From an uncultured Nitrososphaerota archaeon (lineage in GTDB: Archaea > Asgardarchaeota > Njordarchaeia > Njordarchaeales > Panguiarchaeaceae), in contig CAZWPQ010000023.1 of the NCBI GenBank assembly GCA_964636085.1, forward strand, positions 1 to 34,140: a stretch of 34,140 nt of DNA, given 5' to 3'. Made by a program: the position numbers and the translations under genes. The notes beneath the pieces are model-generated. The model saw only the letters and a list, made by a program, of their open reading frames with translations. It searched no databases and was not told where the DNA came from. Numbering within the stretch: position 1 is the first letter of the stretch; every line of letters begins with the position of its first letter. Of the stretch, positions 4,390-26,139 are shown in pieces.

Positions 4390-4605
4390 ATGGTGATATG
4401 GGTGAGTGTGACTACCGTGGCTGTGTCTCGGGATTTGAAGGCTAAGCTTATGGAGCTAAAGATCTCAGAGAATGCCAAATCACTTGACGAGCTATTGAGG
4501 AGAATGCTCATCATATATAAAAAGTATAGGTTCCTAGAAGCAAGCATGAAAGTTAGAAAAAGAATGCATGAGCTAGGGATAAGTCTAGAGGAACTCATAG
4601 AATGA
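4390..4605 (+). CDS. VapB-type antitoxin
   Basis: 71 aa, with an RHH-like N-terminus (TTVAVSRDLKAKLMELK..SLDELLRRML); 4-nt overlap with the downstream PIN gene. Confidence 0.75.
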   Translation: MVIWVSVTTVAVSRDLKAKLMELKISENAKSLDELLRRMLIIYKKYRFLEASMKVRKRMHELGISLEELIE

Positions 4606-5090
4606 CTAGGATATTTGTGATAATCGATACAAACGTCATATTTTCTGCCCTATATAAGCCAGAATCAAATCCTGGGCTAATACTACTTTTGGGGATACTT
4701 GACAAACTCGAATTAGTTGCACCAATGACCGTCCGCAGAGAAATATATGAGAAGCTTGTCGAGAAATTAGGATTCAGCAACCAAGAAGCACTAGACATAA
4801 TCTCAGCACTACCAATCCGATGGATTGAAGACGAAGTAATTCAGGATATCCTTCCCAACGCATTAGAAATCGTAAGAGATAAAGATGACGCCCCAATGGT
4901 GGCCCTCCAAATCCTTGCTGGATACCCCATAATAACAGGGGATAGTGAGCTATTAGGGAATAAAAATATCCACACGTACTCACCACGTCATTTCCTAGAA
5001 ACACTTATTAAAAGCGGCATAATAAGTAGTAGGGATCTTGATAAACTAAAGAAAGATATCAAACTAATAGAAGCACTAATAAAAACCTAG
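4602..5090 (+). CDS. PIN-domain (VapC-type) ribonuclease toxin
   Basis: IIDTNVIFSAL, E (RREI), RDKDDAP, ITGDSEL acidic PIN motifs. Confidence 0.9.
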   Translation: MTRIFVIIDTNVIFSALYKPESNPGLILLLGILDKLELVAPMTVRREIYEKLVEKLGFSNQEALDIISALPIRWIEDEVIQDILPNALEIVRDKDDAPMVALQILAGYPIITGDSELLGNKNIHTYSPRHFLETLIKSGIISSRDLDKLKKDIKLIEALIKT

Positions 5091-7820: not shown

Positions 7821-8372
7821 TCATTCTCTATTTCCAAATACCTTAGCAATACTTAGAGATAGCTTGTCTAGGTATTGTGTTTTTGCATCTATTAGTTCTG
7901 CGTGATGAATCATTATTTTTCGTTTTAGCTTCTGTATCCTGAGAAAACTTTCGAGTGCTTCTCTAAGGTCTACTTTTTCTGCCATTTTGACTATTTGTTC
8001 TAGCTCTCTAAGCAATATTTTCACATCACTAATGATGAGCTCTCTTATTTCCTCGAACGATGTGATCCCCTCATAGAAGTCTAGTATATGGATCCTATAC
8101 GCAAGCTTATCATATAGATCAAGCACCCTCTTTTTATTTATGTTTCTTAGAAAATCAAAAAACAGGGGTAGGCCTATATTTACTGTTTTCGCATATTGAT
8201 ATGGTATTTTTGCGGCTACTAAGACTGCTTTTCGCATGGTCTCTACCGCACGCCAAGCTTTTTCAGCGGTGTCATAATAATCTTCATGCTCGAGGAGCTC
8301 CAGAGCTTTCTCAAAACTCGCTTTAGCATCAGCGATAAGGTCGCTAACATTAGGATAATCATTATTAATCAT
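7821..8372 (-). CDS. PaREP1 / HEPN-superfamily protein with C-terminal helical extension
   Basis: YYDTAEKAWRAVE and RIHILDFYEG match PaREP1-type motifs. Confidence 0.75.
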   Translation of the reverse strand: MINNDYPNVSDLIADAKASFEKALELLEHEDYYDTAEKAWRAVETMRKAVLVAAKIPYQYAKTVNIGLPLFFDFLRNINKKRVLDLYDKLAYRIHILDFYEGITSFEEIRELIISDVKILLRELEQIVKMAEKVDLREALESFLRIQKLKRKIMIHHAELIDAKTQYLDKLSLSIAKVFGNRE

Positions 8373-16525: not shown

Positions 16526-17362
16526 CTATGATGTCTTCTTAATTAGTTTCTGGACCTCAGGATATGAGCTTGTTCTTTTATGCATACTCATCTGCATTAG
16601 TTCTATTATCCTATCCACCTCACTAGGCGATACACCACCAATCTTTTTTAGATCATCCGGCAGGATATTAAGCTCAACTAAGGCGTATAAAATTGAATCA
16701 ATCCTATCGTAGCTCATACCTATCTCCTCCTCTGCCTTATGACCACGCCAAAGGCCAGGGCTTGATGGCTTAGCAATTATCTTATCAGGGACGCCTAGTT
16801 CTTTAGCTATTATCCTAACCTGTGTTTTATAGAGATCAACTATTGGGAAAATATCGGCGGCAGCATCGCCCCACTTTGTGAAATATCCAATCAGTTTTTC
16901 GCTCTTATCACTTGTGCCCAATACAATCCCATTCATACTATTAGAGAACGCATATAGTGTTATCATTCTGGTTCTCGCGATAATATTTCCATATGGTTTC
17001 GTACCAACATCTACATAGGGTACTAGCTTTTGCTTTATTAGACCACATACATCGGCTAGTTCTATAGTGATGCACTCTACACCAAATTTATCCGCAACCA
17101 TATATGCGTCCTCGATGTCGGCTTTTTCAGTTATACCATAGTGTGGCATAACCAGCGCCAAGACATTATCTGGACCAACCGCGTCTACAGCAAGCTTTAG
17201 TGTCGTTGAGGAGTCGATGCCCCCAGAGAGCCCTATGATAAGTTTCTTTGTTTTTGTTTCCTCGAAATATTTCTTGATGAATTGCTCTATCTCCATTATC
17301 ACCAATTTCGTGTCGAAGTTTAACATTTGCTTTTTTATATCCTCTATTCTTCCTAGAATCAT
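16526..17362 (-). CDS. nadE: NH3-dependent NAD+ synthetase
   Basis: GLSGGIDSS, GNIIARTRM, GYFTKWGD, LYKTQV, KPSSPGLW; no glutaminase domain. Confidence 0.96.
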   Translation of the reverse strand: MILGRIEDIKKQMLNFDTKLVIMEIEQFIKKYFEETKTKKLIIGLSGGIDSSTTLKLAVDAVGPDNVLALVMPHYGITEKADIEDAYMVADKFGVECITIELADVCGLIKQKLVPYVDVGTKPYGNIIARTRMITLYAFSNSMNGIVLGTSDKSEKLIGYFTKWGDAAADIFPIVDLYKTQVRIIAKELGVPDKIIAKPSSPGLWRGHKAEEEIGMSYDRIDSILYALVELNILPDDLKKIGGVSPSEVDRIIELMQMSMHKRTSSYPEVQKLIKKTS

Positions 17363-17814
17363 TCTACAGACTCCCCAATTAGTTTCTCTATGGCGCGTTT
17401 GACACTCGTATATACCTCGTCCAACACATCAATATTTTCCATCATTGTCTTTATCTCCGTTATTGTCATCGACGCGCTCTTATGCATAATTATGTTTCTG
17501 AGGTCTACGAGTATTTTTAGTTTTTCCATGAACTTCTTTGGTATTATTTTTGCCATAACAAGCATCTGTACGGATTCCATATAGTCCTTGGGCACGCCAA
17601 GTTTCTTCTTTACAACAATATAATTTGAAAGTGTAAGTATGGACTGCACCACTACCAGAAAGCCGTAGTTCATAGCCATTAACTTTTTGGGGTCGGAGAG
17701 TATCATCTCCGGCGATAGATGCTTCGTCTTCTTTATATAGTTTATCATCTCGTCGCTTCTTTCAAATATCTTGCCTAATACCTCATGGGTCAATATGAAT
17801 GACATTTTGGTCAA
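17359..17814 (-). CDS. DUF86/HepT-like HEPN ribonuclease-domain protein
   Basis: LGVPKDY and LRNIIMH (R-X4-H). Confidence 0.8.
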   Translation of the reverse strand: MTKMSFILTHEVLGKIFERSDEMINYIKKTKHLSPEMILSDPKKLMAMNYGFLVVVQSILTLSNYIVVKKKLGVPKDYMESVQMLVMAKIIPKKFMEKLKILVDLRNIIMHKSASMTITEIKTMMENIDVLDEVYTSVKRAIEKLIGESVE

Positions 17815-21041: not shown

Positions 21042-22073
21042 CTAGTTACTTCTAAGGGATCTTCTTCCCCTTCTCATACAGGACTTTATTAGTGCCTTTT
21101 CTACATCTGTCAAGTACTTCATTATGACTGGTAGTATCTCTCTTATAGTTATTGGCGTTGTCTGGAATATGTCCGATATATCAAACTGCCTTAATTTGAT
21201 TCTGCGGTTATCTGGCAGTACAAGAATAGTTGCCACATATGTCAGAGCTGTCGCTATAGATTTTGCAGTTTTTCCTAGTTTTAATAAATCATTCTTCGCT
21301 TTCTTCCACAACTCATTAACTTTCTGTATTATGGCTCCTTCATATCCCTGTATAATTTTCACCTTTCTAAGTTTGCCTCTATAGATCTCAAGTAGTTTTA
21401 TTGGCTGATCCTCTTCCCTTATTAAATAAGCCGTTGTCCTGATCTTAAGCAGATCAGCTATAATCCTTCTCTTAGACCTAATTTGCTTCGCCAACCTCCT
21501 GATTTTTGTCTCACTATAGCTATTCATTGAATGCAACAATGTTTCTTCAGTTATGGCATAGCCATGCATCCTTGCTGCCAGCAAGAATGCCGCGTATGCC
21601 GAAACCTCCAGGTTATCACTCCTAGTCTTTTGGTGCTTTAGATATCTCGCAAATATATCAATTGCGCTCTTCACAATAGGACTATTCTCGGAGAACCCTA
21701 TAGCGATTGCCGCCCTCTTTATATATGAGGTGGCATCACTGAGATGCCTTCTCCTTATGGTACTCTCAATCGAATAAATATCATGCGGCATCAATTTCCT
21801 ATGAATCTGTATATCCTCCTCCTCGGGCTCCGGCCGAGCATACTTAACCTCTGCGTGGGGCTTCACGAAGGTATCGTATACTCTTCCACATACGGGACAG
21901 AAGACTTCATCGGTATCTTCGTTATAATCCAACGCAACCCTACATATAGGACAATATCCATAAGGGGTCTCAACGACCATTTTTTCTTCTATTTGTAAGG
22001 GTATAAATTGACCTGGAATATCCACTATTTCACCTTTTTCGTGCCTTTTAACTAGTGTCTCCATCGCATACAC
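21042..22073 (-). CDS. Divergent transcription initiation factor IIB (TFB) paralog
   Basis: Zn ribbon CPIC-x15-CPVCG, two cyclin-fold repeats (AAFLLAARMHG; GKTAKSIATALTYVA), C-terminal HTH (QFDISDIFQTTPITIR). Confidence 0.8.
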   Translation of the reverse strand: MYAMETLVKRHEKGEIVDIPGQFIPLQIEEKMVVETPYGYCPICRVALDYNEDTDEVFCPVCGRVYDTFVKPHAEVKYARPEPEEEDIQIHRKLMPHDIYSIESTIRRRHLSDATSYIKRAAIAIGFSENSPIVKSAIDIFARYLKHQKTRSDNLEVSAYAAFLLAARMHGYAITEETLLHSMNSYSETKIRRLAKQIRSKRRIIADLLKIRTTAYLIREEDQPIKLLEIYRGKLRKVKIIQGYEGAIIQKVNELWKKAKNDLLKLGKTAKSIATALTYVATILVLPDNRRIKLRQFDISDIFQTTPITIREILPVIMKYLTDVEKALIKSCMRRGRRSLRSN

Positions 22074-22389
22074 CCGATAAAACTCTCATGTTAAGATTTT
22101 GCAACAAATATATATATTTTTTATTACACTTAAAAAATTTTGCTTTTCATCGAGATAATCTAGATTCAATGAGTACAATTTTACTTGTGTTTTTATGGAC
22201 CAACCAGAATTATTATAGAGTAAAATATGACTAAAATCTAAAAAAACTTACAAAAAGTCTTTCTCTCCAAGTATCACAAAATATCCATTAGCATAAGAAC
22301 ATCCTTGGACCCGAATTTCTTAATTTAAAATCTACGAAAACAGAAAAAACAAACACCAAAAAAAGATATATTAGAGGAGGCCCGGAAGT

Positions 22390-22704
22390 CTATTTGGTGA
22401 TCTGGATTTCTCCAGTACGCTTTAGGATGATCTCTATAGTACTGACGCGATTTACGCGTCCAGGCTGGTTTGGATTCTCAAGTTCCTCAGTACCTGTCCT
22501 TATGTCCTCGATCTCAATGATTCCTGGCAGATAACGTGTTTTGAGCATCTCTGCAACATCTACAGCCTTGCTTATCATCCTTCCACGCGCACTAATGCGT
22601 AGCTTTTCGGGCCTTTCGTTTAGGAGTATGGAGATGGCGGCCATCATGTATCTGATGAGGGGTTTCTTACCGATGTAGATTGTTGGGATTTCGCTTTCGG
22701 ACAT
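22390..22704 (-). CDS. albA: DNA/RNA-binding protein Alba
   Basis: IYIGKKP, ARGRMISKAVDVAE, GTEE, VSTIEI. Confidence 0.95.
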   Translation of the reverse strand: MSESEIPTIYIGKKPLIRYMMAAISILLNERPEKLRISARGRMISKAVDVAEMLKTRYLPGIIEIEDIRTGTEELENPNQPGRVNRVSTIEIILKRTGEIQITK

Positions 22705-22907
22705 TTTTTCTCACCTAGGTATTTTGGTGTGTTTGCTATGTGTGAAATAGTAAATGTGGTATTTAAAGGTTTACCTATATCGCAGGGTCTATGGATGCTG
22801 TTTTTGTGGTATTATTTTCCTGTATTACGCTGTTTCTGTAGTATTACTATACTAACTATATTACTCCTTCCTAATCGATACATTTCATCATGGCTGTATT
22901 CAGTCGC

Positions 22908-23008
22908 GAAACTAGTTTCGTTGGCTAATTTTTATGGCTTATAGCACACAACAATTAGCACTGGAGAGATCAGATTAGCGATCAGCGTCGAGGAAAAAGA
23001 GAAACAGA
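22908..23008 (+). repeat. Left 101-bp inverted repeat
   Basis: Exact reverse complement of 24421..24521; the outer end carries the palindrome CGAAACTAGTTTCG (22907..22920). Confidence 0.95.
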
Positions 23009-23053
23009 GACAACCAACAGATGAGAAGCTTCCCATTCCAGTTCTCAGACACA

Positions 23054-23100
23054 TGAAACCAATGTTTCAGTTTTGTTTCAGTTGTTTCACCTTGTTTCAG
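23054..23100 (+). repeat. Phased TGTTTCA heptamer array
   Basis: TGTTTCA at 23063, 23074, 23083 and 23093, plus an inverted TGAAAC at 23054. Confidence 0.75.
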
Positions 23101-23287
23101 TTTCTCGCAGGATACATCCGATACTTCTTGCCCTGCACTGCGTCCTGTACATTCGAGAAATCACATATATTTTGTGTCGCTTTGCGTTCTATGCATTCAA
23201 GTTGTTCTATGTTTTTGTTTCGGGGTTTAGACTGGTAACTCTTCCCTCTAGGATGCTTCTCCTTCTTCTTCTGTCAGCCCCATTATT

Positions 23288-23342
23288 GCCTCTATTATTC
23301 CTCCTATTTCTCCCCTGTTCTGAATACTTGTCAGCAAGTTTT
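23288..23342 (+). repeat. 55-bp direct repeat, copy 1
   Basis: First 30 bp (GCCTCTATTATTCCTCCTATTTCTCCCCTG) identical to 24352..24381; 49/55 identical overall. Confidence 0.9.
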
Positions 23343-23467
23343 ATATCCCCACCAACAATGCTTGTTTGATACATTCTATCCACGTTCATTCTTGTTGAGA
23401 GTTTTAATTAATTATAATTTATTATAATGAAATTTAATTAAATATAATTAAAAGTGGTGATCTAGAA

Positions 23468-24310
23468 ATGCTATTCGAATTTGCATTTAGCATCGGGATA
23501 GCCATCATAATAATGGCATTTCTAGCAGAATATGTTGATTCGACACTAGGCATGGGCTATGGAACGGCTTTGACTCCACTCTTAATAATCCTCGGCTTCG
23601 AACCACTGCAAGTTATCCCAGCAGTTTTACTGTCCCAGCTTATTGCTGGCATACTAGCGGGTCTATTCCATCATTTTGCAGGCAATGTCAATTTTAAGCC
23701 GAAAACCATTGATGTGAAGGTAATCATGAGGAAGGTAAAGGAGCTCGGCATTGTTGAAAGCTTTAGGCGAGGCGTTCCTCTGCCCCTCAAGGTCGCCATT
23801 ATATTGGCCCTATGTGGAATAATTGGTTCTCTAATTGCTGTGTTTGTGGCGATAAGTCTGCCAAAGCTCTACCTTAGAATATATATAGGGATATTGATTT
23901 TTATAACAGGAATAATAATATTGGCCACAAGAAATAGGCAATATAGTTTTTCTTGGAAAAAATTAACGCTCCTAGGAATGGTAGCCTCATTTAATAAAGG
24001 TATGAGTGGCGGTGGGTATGGGGCCGTCGTTACATGTGGCCAGATGCTCTCAGGTCTCAACGAAAAGACCGCCATAGCTATTACATCGTTGGCTGAGGGG
24101 CTAACATGCTTCGTTGGGGTAACAGCCTATGTACTCATTGGGGGGATAGTTGACTGGACACTAGCACTATACTTGATAGTTGGTGTTGTTCCTTCGGTAC
24201 CGCTATCAGCCTATACCGTAAAGAAAACAGGAACTAGGAAACTTAGGATGGCTGTTGGCATATTCACGGTGCTTTTAGGAGCAATCACAATTGTTAAAAT
24301 TTTTCTGTAA
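23468..24310 (+). CDS. Sulfite exporter TauE/SafE (TSUP) family membrane protein
   Basis: AEYVDSTLGMGYGTALTPLL, FNKGMSGGGYG, about 8 TM helices; GGTGA RBS and a very AT-rich upstream region. Confidence 0.9.
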   Translation: MLFEFAFSIGIAIIIMAFLAEYVDSTLGMGYGTALTPLLIILGFEPLQVIPAVLLSQLIAGILAGLFHHFAGNVNFKPKTIDVKVIMRKVKELGIVESFRRGVPLPLKVAIILALCGIIGSLIAVFVAISLPKLYLRIYIGILIFITGIIILATRNRQYSFSWKKLTLLGMVASFNKGMSGGGYGAVVTCGQMLSGLNEKTAIAITSLAEGLTCFVGVTAYVLIGGIVDWTLALYLIVGVVPSVPLSAYTVKKTGTRKLRMAVGIFTVLLGAITIVKIFL

Positions 24311-24351
24311 ACATTGAATCCATTATTACTCGTAACGACAAAACCATCCAC

Positions 24352-24406
24352 GCCTCTATTATTCCTCCTATTTCTCCCCTGCTCTGAGTATTGGTCAGTG
24401 AGTTTT
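24352..24406 (+). repeat. 55-bp direct repeat, copy 2
   Basis: Matches 23288..23342. Confidence 0.9.
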
Positions 24407-24420
24407 TAGTTGTTTTTGTT

Positions 24421-24521
24421 TCTGTTTCTCTTTTTCCTCGACGCTGATCGCTAATCTGATCTCTCCAGTGCTAATTGTTGTGTGCTATAAGCCATAAAAA
24501 TTAGCCAACGAAACTAGTTTC
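24421..24521 (-). repeat. Right 101-bp inverted repeat
   Basis: Exact reverse complement of 22908..23008. Confidence 0.95.
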
Positions 24522-24525
24522 ACGA

Positions 24526-24661
24526 TATTACAGATCTCTGTCAGTCTGGTCATGTAATTTGCTATTGCTTCTAGTATCGCAATATAGTTTGTCGGATCCC
24601 TTAACTCCTCTCTAAGCAGTTCTTTTGCATCCCTAAATAGAAAGGAAGAGCTATCAAAAAT
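24526..24661 (-). pseudogene. Internal fragment of an archaeal ATPase (ATPase_2/DUF234 type)
   Basis: IFDSSSFLFRDAKELLREELRDPTNYIAILEAIANYMTRLTEICN resembles the LLREELREP..Y..ILEAIA.G.T.LSEIAN segment of that family; no P-loop; cut at the IR. Confidence 0.7.
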
Positions 24662-24783
24662 ATAAAGAATTTCTGCGTAATCATGTACATAATTGCTTAC
24701 AAGCCAAAAGGTGTTTAGAAAAAATCTGCAACACTTAATTGAGGTAGTTTGACACAAAAAGTTTTCGGCTTAAATATAGCTGG

Positions 24784-26139
24784 TTAGATCCATGTAAATG
24801 TTTCTAGTATCTCCTTGAACTCGGTTTGTAATTGGCTAAAGTTGGAGACCTCCCCGTAGCATATAATTACTCCAGTTCTTGAGAGTTCTCTTATGTATGT
24901 AACGAAGCAATCTAGTTGGAGTGTTATTTTTTCGGTTGGAGACATATCAGTGTAACTATCCATTCGCATTGTTACTTTTATGTATTGTGTATTGTTTAGC
25001 TTTATTGGTCCTGTTGTATTTATTGTTGCTATTATTTCTATGTCCTCTCCCCTTACTTTTTGTGGTCTAAGCCATGCGACGAACTGCAATATGATTAATC
25101 TTCTCAGTGTTATGTTATCTATATACCCCTTGTCCACATCCACTATATCCTTCCCTTGTATGAGATAGAAGTTTATTCCCGCTTGATACCATATACTCCC
25201 TTTCTCATAGTGGCCCGTACTTGGGTATGTAACGAATACAACTCCAGATGCCCCTATCGGGGACCATATATATGACATCCTCATTCCGTTTATTGACCAT
25301 TCCTCAGGTAGTGCAGCCTCAATTCTTTCCCGTACACGTCTCTCTATCCCCATTGTTCTAGTAGCAATATACGTAGGAACTGGTAGGAGAATAACTAGTA
25401 GCAGTGCTAGACCTATAAATCTTCTTTTATCACTTATCTTTCCCTTGGTTTCTCTTAGGATTGTCTGAAGGTCCAACGCCAACCATATTATTCCAAATAA
25501 TAGTAGTGGGCCAGCGCTATCTATTATCAACAGTGCTAGTGTTCTTCTAAAGGCCTCAAACCACTGCTGAGAGAGTATGTTTGTTATCATTATTGAATAA
25601 AGCGTAATGTCCATCATTACCAATAGAAATGGTGCGAGTATTATGGCTACAAATCCTACAAACCTCATCGATAGTCTATATTTAAAGATAAATGGAGCAA
25701 AGTACATCAAGCACAACAAAACACCAAAGCTCATTACTGATAGGCCCATCATTATGAAAATAATATAGCCAGATATGATCAGTATTATGCCAGTAACTAT
25801 GAATAGCGATGCTATGAAGAGCTGATATAGCGCTGGCCTTTTTAACTCCCCCATTAGACTACTAAACGCTATATGCAGAAAAAGAGCGTAGATTACGTAG
25901 GAAGGTATTTTCCATGCTATTAACGGATCACGAAATACCAGTGATAACGATGCTGGTGTCAATATGGCCACTATAAAAGTAGTATAAATATCGCAGAGGC
26001 CTGCCATAAATACTATCCCAACCTTATCCAATACAGTGTATCCAAAATATTCACCAATAATCCCTAATAGCGTGTTAATTAGGGTGGCTACTACGCTTAC
26101 CATTACCTTATTTATCCTATTTAGCATGAATATCCACAT
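24784..26139 (-). CDS. Polytopic membrane protein (ECF S-component-like N-terminus) with a soluble C-terminal domain
   Basis: About 8 hydrophobic helices in aa 10-260 including LDKVGIVFMAGL, followed by a polar domain of about 190 aa. Confidence 0.7.
   Translation of the reverse strand: MWIFMLNRINKVMVSVVATLINTLLGIIGEYFGYTVLDKVGIVFMAGLCDIYTTFIVAILTPASLSLVFRDPLIAWKIPSYVIYALFLHIAFSSLMGELKRPALYQLFIASLFIVTGIILIISGYIIFIMMGLSVMSFGVLLCLMYFAPFIFKYRLSMRFVGFVAIILAPFLLVMMDITLYSIMITNILSQQWFEAFRRTLALLIIDSAGPLLLFGIIWLALDLQTILRETKGKISDKRRFIGLALLLVILLPVPTYIATRTMGIERRVRERIEAALPEEWSINGMRMSYIWSPIGASGVVFVTYPSTGHYEKGSIWYQAGINFYLIQGKDIVDVDKGYIDNITLRRLIILQFVAWLRPQKVRGEDIEIIATINTTGPIKLNNTQYIKVTMRMDSYTDMSPTEKITLQLDCFVTYIRELSRTGVIICYGEVSNFSQLQTEFKEILETFTWI

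Follow-up and report, generated by a model that had tools for sequence, protein, structure and literature searches.

The window analysed here, a stretch of 34,140 nucleotides that represents contig C23 of a metagenome-assembled genome (MAG; 2.41 Mb in 102 contigs, 83% complete), contains at 22904-24525 a cassette of 1622 bp, in which the gene for a TauE/SafE transporter (TauE in what follows) lies between two long inverted arms. The organism is a member of the Njordarchaeota, within the Asgard archaea. The cassette, and the dispersed repeats to which its arms belong, are the subject of the present analysis.

A repeat search of the window delimits the arms at 22904-23013 and 24416-24525: they are 110 nt long each and 98% complementary, with 1402 nt between them. 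As an earlier note, made from the letters of this stretch alone, had claimed, 22908-23008 is exactly complementary to 24421-24521, the only two arm-to-arm mismatches falling at arm positions 4 and 106. The palindromic ends described there are also present: the 14-bp palindrome CGAAACTAGTTTCG tips the left arm at 22907-22920, and its right-arm version, at 24509-24522, differs by one change. TauE, matching PF01925, is indeed the sole intact gene inside the cassette (23468-24310), and the absence of a transposase or recombinase from the window is borne out by Pfam scans of its 38 open reading frames (ORFs), where none was found. The parts of the cassette are listed below. The arms are indicated as terminal inverted repeats (TIRs), while DR1 (23288-23342) and DR2 (24352-24406) are the two copies, 89% identical, of a 55-nt direct repeat found just inside them; HTH stands for helix-turn-helix, and L113 and L114 are two contigs from ENA.

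22904..23013, plus strand: left arm (TIR), 110 nt; at the family level the unit extends to about 23028
22907..22920, no strand: terminal 14-bp palindrome CGAAACTAGTTTCG, with the family-conserved core AAACTAGTTT
23014..23232, no strand: region X, with GTTTCA-type short repeats (about 23053-23113) and, after them, a stretch that is conserved; non-coding DNA 3' of the gene that the element originally had; homologues in C69, C36, L097, L106 and L107, with short tandem motifs varying from copy to copy
23233..23342, minus strand: gene-tail relic (…GEIGGIIEAIMGLTEEEGEAS, then stop), the last 25-30 codons or so of a membrane/HTH-like gene of 320-345 aa; includes DR1
23343..23467, plus strand: AT-rich spacer 5' of TauE, probably its promoter; unrelated to the repeat family; 86% identical in L113 and L114
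23468..24310, plus strand: TauE/SafE (TSUP) transporter, intact, 280 aa; PF01925, E 8.9e-29
23142..24325, plus strand: horizontally shared block, made of part of X, tail relic, spacer, TauE and 15 nt beyond
24352..24406, minus strand: DR2, second 55-nt tail piece, 89% identical to DR1; joined to the right arm as in miniature elements
24416..24525, minus strand: right arm (TIR); its outer 105 nt equal the left arm except at position 4, while inward it follows the sequence of another subfamily
24527..24658, minus strand: relic of an ATPase gene (PF01637-like), aa 232-275 of about 477, ending exactly at the right arm

That the inverted repeat might be an assembly artefact, a possibility raised in the earlier note, is refuted. 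Exact unitigs of run X1 cross all four junctions (22431-22937, 23168-23565, 23619-24444 and 24492-25100), and, with 2 differences, a contig from a second study (X2) leads from TauE by way of DR2 to the inner arm; the structure of the cassette is therefore real. In the contigs of four public runs (Logan) the identical arm interior is collapsed, so that the orientation of the inner segment cannot be read from them; none of these contigs joins 22903 to 24526 or represents an empty site for the cassette. Joints skipping about 1064-1185 nt come from other miniature copies, with 85% likeness. Beside the Alba gene, no empty site is readable in genomes of the same genus, where Alba homology stops at 22780 and contexts differ.

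The repeat family and its elements

By BLAST, profile and motif searches, 16-18 copies of the arm were found in the same genome, at 71-87% identity; they are mostly solo and intergenic, and several are located at contig ends. Overall, 49 non-redundant arm copies were collected, and about 70 copies were examined for cargo or enzyme genes. All copies start sharply at TCGC(R)AAACTAGTTTCG, also written TCGC(R)AAACTAG, with unrelated sequence outside, and the palindrome core AAACTAGTTT is conserved family-wide. The inner end lies at about …GAGAAACAGAAACAAAAACAACTA; solo arms, whose inner end is defined, make up about half of the copies. Either orientation occurs among the members, which are placed in intergenic contexts unrelated to one another or within gene relics.

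The family is present in three of four genomes of the same genus, and weak traces were detected in one other genus, when 60 relatives were screened; up to 65 family matches were counted in genome G004. An exact-motif scan of GTDB species genomes gave matches in Njordarchaeota records only, and 28 contigs were matched in a scan of JGI metagenomes. Copies are also found in congeneric MAGs and in Guaymas-type metagenomes, all of them Njordarchaeota, with about 60 or more copies per genus-level sample. As judged from these searches, it is a dispersed repeat family confined to Njordarchaeota; a literature search found no paper on repeats in this group. Insertion at the TA of a pre-existing palindrome of 18-20 bp was considered and rejected, every genome match being an arm end itself, with no unoccupied copy. 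A partial arm-like match (C38:7690-7743, C55:8321-8374) is included in a stretch of about 4.5 kb, 100% identical between C38:3950-8405 and C55:4581-9036 of G000, which reflects either recent duplication or assembly redundancy.

Complete two-arm elements are 561-663 bp long, apart from one of 358 bp and one of 844 bp. These miniature elements are composed of a TIR (110-125 nt), a gene tail corresponding to the last 25 codons or so, X and an inverted TIR, where X consists of arrays of 9-11-nt tandem motifs, different between copies. The arm-to-tail junction found at DR2 recurs in C80, C27, C36, L047, L038 and L113. In the copies on C99, C32 and C85 the tail is longer (…ILPTLRRDL..NPTLLIDTLRRFADQYPERQEEVRRIIEAIMRPPEEEREET..EEEPPA, then stop).

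A database search led to the parent protein family, consisting of 18 clusters (P0001-P0018) known from metagenomes only and from Njordarchaeota only, 320-345 aa long and ending in exactly that tail; the 55-nt repeat, at first read in the frame KLADKYSEQG, was assigned to the frame …GEIGGIIEAIM… after this family had been found. Its members feature a pair of membrane helices at the N terminus and a conserved PWLETYLREV…GFPYVPDIIVKDPATAKIEIRRPP block, together with a Pro/Gln linker, a helical C-domain, modelled confidently (pLDDT about 95), and an acidic tail. No significant Pfam match was obtained for P0001-P0018, where only weak HTH matches appear (E about 0.1); weak HTH-like leads were also all that an atlas search returned, and the fold has no Foldseek match at E ≤ 0.001. 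A likeness to death folds was discarded, the best VIA Z of 7.6 not being meaningful for helical bundles. The gene of the longer form is not recognisable as a transposase.

The gene is followed by X and an inverted arm in L107, L111 and L112; in L106 and L109 an arm is also found ahead of it, resulting in gene-bearing elements of 1.6-1.9 kb. The miniature elements, where the last 25 codons or so are fused to one arm, therefore look like internal-deletion derivatives of the gene-bearing form. Arrays of tandem motifs always follow the gene and are copy-specific, as exemplified by CTGAAACAA, CTGAGCAAA, GGACGCACAGC and TTCTGCACAG. Gene loci are L106, L107, L108, L109, L111 and L112, and fragments are located at G000:C40:9580-10215, at C99:14-334 and on C81. 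The gene lies directly downstream of a large surface-protein gene in L107 and L112, and near an ATPase of the FtsK/HerA/TrwB type in L111.

Insertion sites and candidate transposases

The sequences TATTCAG and TATTACAG, which flank the cassette, had been taken for a degenerate target-site duplication (TSD). Both are present, and a 7/8-nt match of this kind would be expected by chance in 0.34% of random flank pairs; their interpretation as a duplication, on the other hand, is not supported. The right copy consists of the last codons of the archaeal ATPase-gene relic, which has no continuation to the left of the cassette, and the match is therefore treated as probably due to chance. Among 8 other complete elements, not one shows a match resembling a TSD, with ±2 nt allowed around the ends. 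A single strain comparison reaches an element end: between L090:2734-2983, on a metagenome contig, and G000:C64:103-353, in this genome, a homology of 92% sets in right at the outer end of a miniature element, while the other flank is unrelated; a rearrangement breakpoint here coincides with the element end.

Two transposase genes, found in association with arm copies, were evaluated as possible autonomous partners and rejected. The IS110-family transposase in metagenome contig L083 is part of a separate insertion sequence (IS) of 1482 bp, nested in the inner end of an arm copy; the repeat does not provide the ends of this DEDD transposase, as the IS110-family element has its own (AACAAATAATCATCC… / …CAACATACCAAA). 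The element, located at L083:612-2093 and identical to G000:C7:2459-3940, codes for a 375-aa protein matching DEDD_Tnp_IS110 and Transposase_20, and its junction with the arm is a loose end in run X1. Several 100%-identical copies of this IS break the assembly, as seen at contig ends C44, C39, C63, C47 and C86. The DDE-like gene of L097 and G004:C5, coding for 702-716 aa, was similarly set aside: it belongs to a 2.26-kb IS nested in X, which features perfect 23-bp TIRs GAATATGTCCAAAAATTGTTTGG and a 4-bp duplication (GTTT), and has independent copies elsewhere. Its sites are L097:417-2673 and G004:C5:3022-4780 (L123), the latter degraded, along with others on G004:C112 and G003:C16. The protein resembles DDE (IS4/ISNCY-like) transposases by language-model features only, and has no Pfam match. 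Y1_Tnp and DDE_Tnp_1 find no match in this 83%-complete assembly; its one TnpB-like gene is located 2.3 kb from the arm copy on C40, and is not adjacent to it.

Arm copies are often found beside archaeal ATPase genes (PF01637, AAA_14/DUF4143), as on C28, C80, C67, C27, C91 and C18 and at L113:5476-6855, and these genes adjoin the arms at either gene end. Their adjacency points to variable regions or to a target preference. As a possible transposase the recurrent ATPase neighbour was rejected, because it lies outside the outer ends of the element.

Elsewhere in the window, a Ras/Roc-family small GTPase, expected for an Asgard archaeon, is encoded at 2317-2913 on the plus strand (PF00071, E 8e-41); the window further contains genes for a PIN-domain protein (4602-5090), a PaREP1/HEPN protein (7821-8372) and a HepT-like protein (17359-17814).

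Origin of the cassette

Read along the minus strand, the cassette starts with the arm 24525-24416, joined through a junction of the miniature type to the tail piece DR2 (24406-24352); 41 nt and TauE, in antisense, follow; next come an AT-rich spacer of 125 nt, the tail relic (23342-23233, including DR1), X (23232-23014) and the inverted arm (23013-22904). The TauE segment, of about 1 kb, is therefore placed on the opposite strand, with its own upstream region, between two 55-nt copies of the gene tail, so that both TIRs and the element core enclose TauE. DR1 retains the AAAAC of the miniature-element arm/tail junction; together with the junction at DR2, this indicates that both halves of the cassette derive from the miniature form.

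The arms are more alike than the other duplicated part of the cassette. A single mismatch is present in their outer 105 nt, vs 6 out of 55 in the internal repeat (Fisher p 0.007), and the nearest other copy of the family is only 92% identical to them; beyond position 105, towards the inside, the sequences of the two arms belong to different subfamilies. Among the other complete elements (n=8), arm identity within an element ranges from 0.59 to 0.96, reaching at least 0.86 in 5 of the 8, with a between-element mean of 0.74. The higher likeness of the arms (99%, compared to 89% for the internal repeat) suggests homogenisation by gene conversion between nearby inverted copies, and is no proof of recent transposition. 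Of the two explanations that the earlier note had offered for arm identity, recent activity or homogenisation, it is thus the latter that the comparison favours.

TauE itself matches PF01925 with 101.3 bits, the cut-off being 32.6, and is full length, 280 aa like its homologues. Its protein is 88-89% identical to three metagenome proteins, and at most 66% to all others. The next relatives, at 58-66% identity, come from metagenomes, and the named ones belong to Nanoarchaeota/Woesearchaeota and to assorted bacteria. At the nucleotide level, window positions 23142-24325 are 88-89% identical to L113 and L114, which are 97.5% alike between them, and 23868-24323 are 88% identical to G002:C243. The right flanks of these three relatives, from about 24324 on, differ from the window and from each other. 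The left half, composed of X, tail, spacer and TauE, is common to distant relatives at 83-90% identity, and the tail/spacer junction 23342/23343 is common to the strains in runs X2-X4 (92-94% identity); this half is old.

Third-codon identity is 0.80-0.84 for TauE, vs 0.40-0.52 for the Alba, TFB-like and 451-aa genes when compared with same-genus genomes, and the other genes of L113 show 39-55% aa identity to this genome. Such low divergence, compared to that of neighbouring genes, shows that the TauE block moved horizontally, its common ancestor being much more recent than that of the genomes; the divergence of the surrounding genes is far older than the passage of the block between lineages.

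In the interpretation preferred here, to which a probability of about 0.6 is assigned, the cassette belongs to a lineage-specific, non-autonomous family of TIR elements of Njordarchaeota and has a foreign gene inside. TauE would have come in at the tail sequence, by recombination or repair, possibly through single-crossover integration of a circular, tail-bearing fragment or through template switching during repair; either route would account for the 55-nt direct repeat that flanks it. Since then, the two arms would have been homogenised by gene conversion between nearby inverted repeats. The family may have spread through an enzyme acting in trans and probably recognising the conserved terminal AAACTAGTTT palindrome; its action would not involve a staggered cut, as no duplication is seen.

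Several observations weigh against this interpretation. The TauE block is present in L113, L114 and G002:C243 without left arm, DR2 and right arm; movement of the whole unit, from one inverted repeat to the other, is accordingly unsupported, and TauE transfer is not demonstrably tied to the arms. Two lineages do not fix the order of events, the right arm having been either gained here or lost elsewhere. To the lack of duplications around the eight other complete elements is added that of a clean empty site. The search for other inverted-repeat pairs with cargo, or for an autonomous copy with a transposase sharing these ends, which the earlier note had proposed as a check, found neither among the approximately 70 copies, in assemblies that are incomplete. 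Its cargo-bearing, non-autonomous transposon is consequently retained in part: a dispersed, transposase-less TIR family, similar to MITEs (transposable elements of the miniature inverted-repeat type), with sharp outer ends and, in the window, a gene between the arms, is what was found, while the carriage of cargo as a unit is not supported by the TauE blocks devoid of arms, nor by any second pair.

The cassette may, alternatively, never have been one unit. Two unrelated, partly deleted miniature copies, the left one having lost its right TIR and the right one its left two-thirds, would flank a gene, and the likeness of the arms would result from later gene conversion. This scenario is considered unlikely, though not negligible. 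It agrees with the 11% divergence of the internal repeat next to arms that are 99% alike, with the inner ends of the arms belonging to different subfamilies, with the relatives that feature left relic and TauE and no right arm, and with the clustering of copies in variable regions beside archaeal ATPase genes; in addition, a complete miniature element is located in L113 320 nt downstream of TauE, in the other orientation, indicating that such elements do land beside the TauE gene. Yet, two separate deletions would be required, and the halves that they leave would have to be exactly complementary and correctly oriented to each other; the left breakpoint is at most 5 nt away from the arm/tail junction typical of miniature elements, and the 1622 bp of the cassette match the length of the gene-bearing form (1.6-1.9 kb). 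Inversion of the inner segment through recombination between the 105-nt inverted repeats, be it homologous or catalysed at the TA-centred palindrome by a site-specific enzyme, would make arm identity a by-product. Perfect inverted repeats at a distance of 1.4 kb offer a substrate for inversion, the arms, more alike than the internal repeat, do exchange sequence, and the terminal palindrome is conserved throughout the family; inversion by plain homologous recombination is possible. As an explanation of the cassette, however, an invertible segment is quite improbable: the 38 ORFs of the window include no invertase or recombinase, the AT-rich region upstream of TauE lies inside the segment, so that its expression would not be switched by inversion, and the repeat elsewhere is mostly represented by solo copies and 560-bp elements, unlike dedicated switches. 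A single orientation is seen in assembly and unitigs, though contigs with collapsed arms could hide the other.

Finally, the repeat could be a conserved regulatory or RNA module, such as a 3' untranslated region, a terminator or a small-RNA gene, duplicated along with a paralogous gene family, and not mobile DNA. The constant position of the unit 3' of the membrane/HTH-like gene, in gene-bearing copies, and the absence of TSDs would fit with such a module; nonetheless, it is a very remote candidate. Positions 22000-25000 have no Rfam match, the 49 arm copies feature no conserved secondary structure (consensus energy -0.45 kcal/mol), and copies, as reported above, are found solo and scattered in both orientations over unrelated intergenic contexts and gene relics.

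A broader proposal goes beyond the cassette as a member of a non-autonomous TIR family. The repeats would represent a new kind of archaeal mobile element, with very long, palindrome-tipped TIRs and no target duplication, whose full-length form encodes the membrane-anchored HTH-like protein, which is no known transposase, together with copy-specific arrays of short repeats, possibly a self-recognition module; such an element would be able to incorporate entire host genes and to transfer them among Asgard lineages, as with TauE. This proposal is speculative, and at present rather doubtful.

Significance and relation to known systems

The mobile DNA of Asgard archaea is little described. The repeat family reported here breaks assemblies and marks variable regions beside genes for archaeal ATPases; also linked to it is a transporter gene whose passage across lineage boundaries is clear. 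Should the element move genes, it would be a tangible means of gene flow in a lineage under study for the origin of eukaryotes; if it does not, what remains is an annotated repeat family, useful as such, along with a case of inverted repeats evolving in concert. The absence of both transposase and duplication makes the mechanism a testable question.

REPINs, doublets of repetitive extragenic palindromic (REP) sequences (Bertels & Rainey 2011, PMC3116915), are hairpin-forming, about 100 nt long in total and tied to RAYT (Y1) transposases. They resemble the present family in being lineage-specific repeats, found as singlets and as inverted pairs, with no target duplication and no enzyme inside. 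The family units, in contrast, are 110-125 nt each, arranged around about 330 nt, and the 83%-complete genome showed no Y1 transposase of the kind to which REPINs are tied.

In several respects the family is MITE-like. Its elements are short (560-660 bp), non-coding or with a gene relic, bounded by TIRs and dispersed in many sharp-ended copies, and they look like internal-deletion derivatives of a longer, gene-bearing form. Unlike MITEs, they feature TIRs of 110-125 nt, far longer than usual, and show no TSD in eight complete copies; the longer form encodes a membrane/HTH-like protein of no known family and no recognisable transposase, and solo arms, defined at their inner end, account for about half of the copies. 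For an element of the MITE-like kind, the length of the TIRs, the lack of duplication and the gene-bearing form without a known transposase are unusual.

Mobile insertion cassettes (MICs), such as MIC231 of Bacillus cereus, share their ends with a known IS, are moved by its transposase in trans and make duplications. With MICs, and with passenger-carrying IS derivatives, the cassette of the window has in common transposon-type inverted repeats around an unrelated passenger gene, with no transposase inside. It differs from them in having no known partner IS and no duplication, and in that the passenger is found in the three relatives without either arm.

Pack-MULE and Pack-TIR elements of eukaryotes capture gene fragments and make 9-bp duplications. 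Here too, a host gene is found between the long TIRs of a non-autonomous element, probably gained by repair or recombination rather than by transposition; the cassette described, by contrast, encloses a whole, functional-looking gene along with its own upstream region, and does so in an archaeon.

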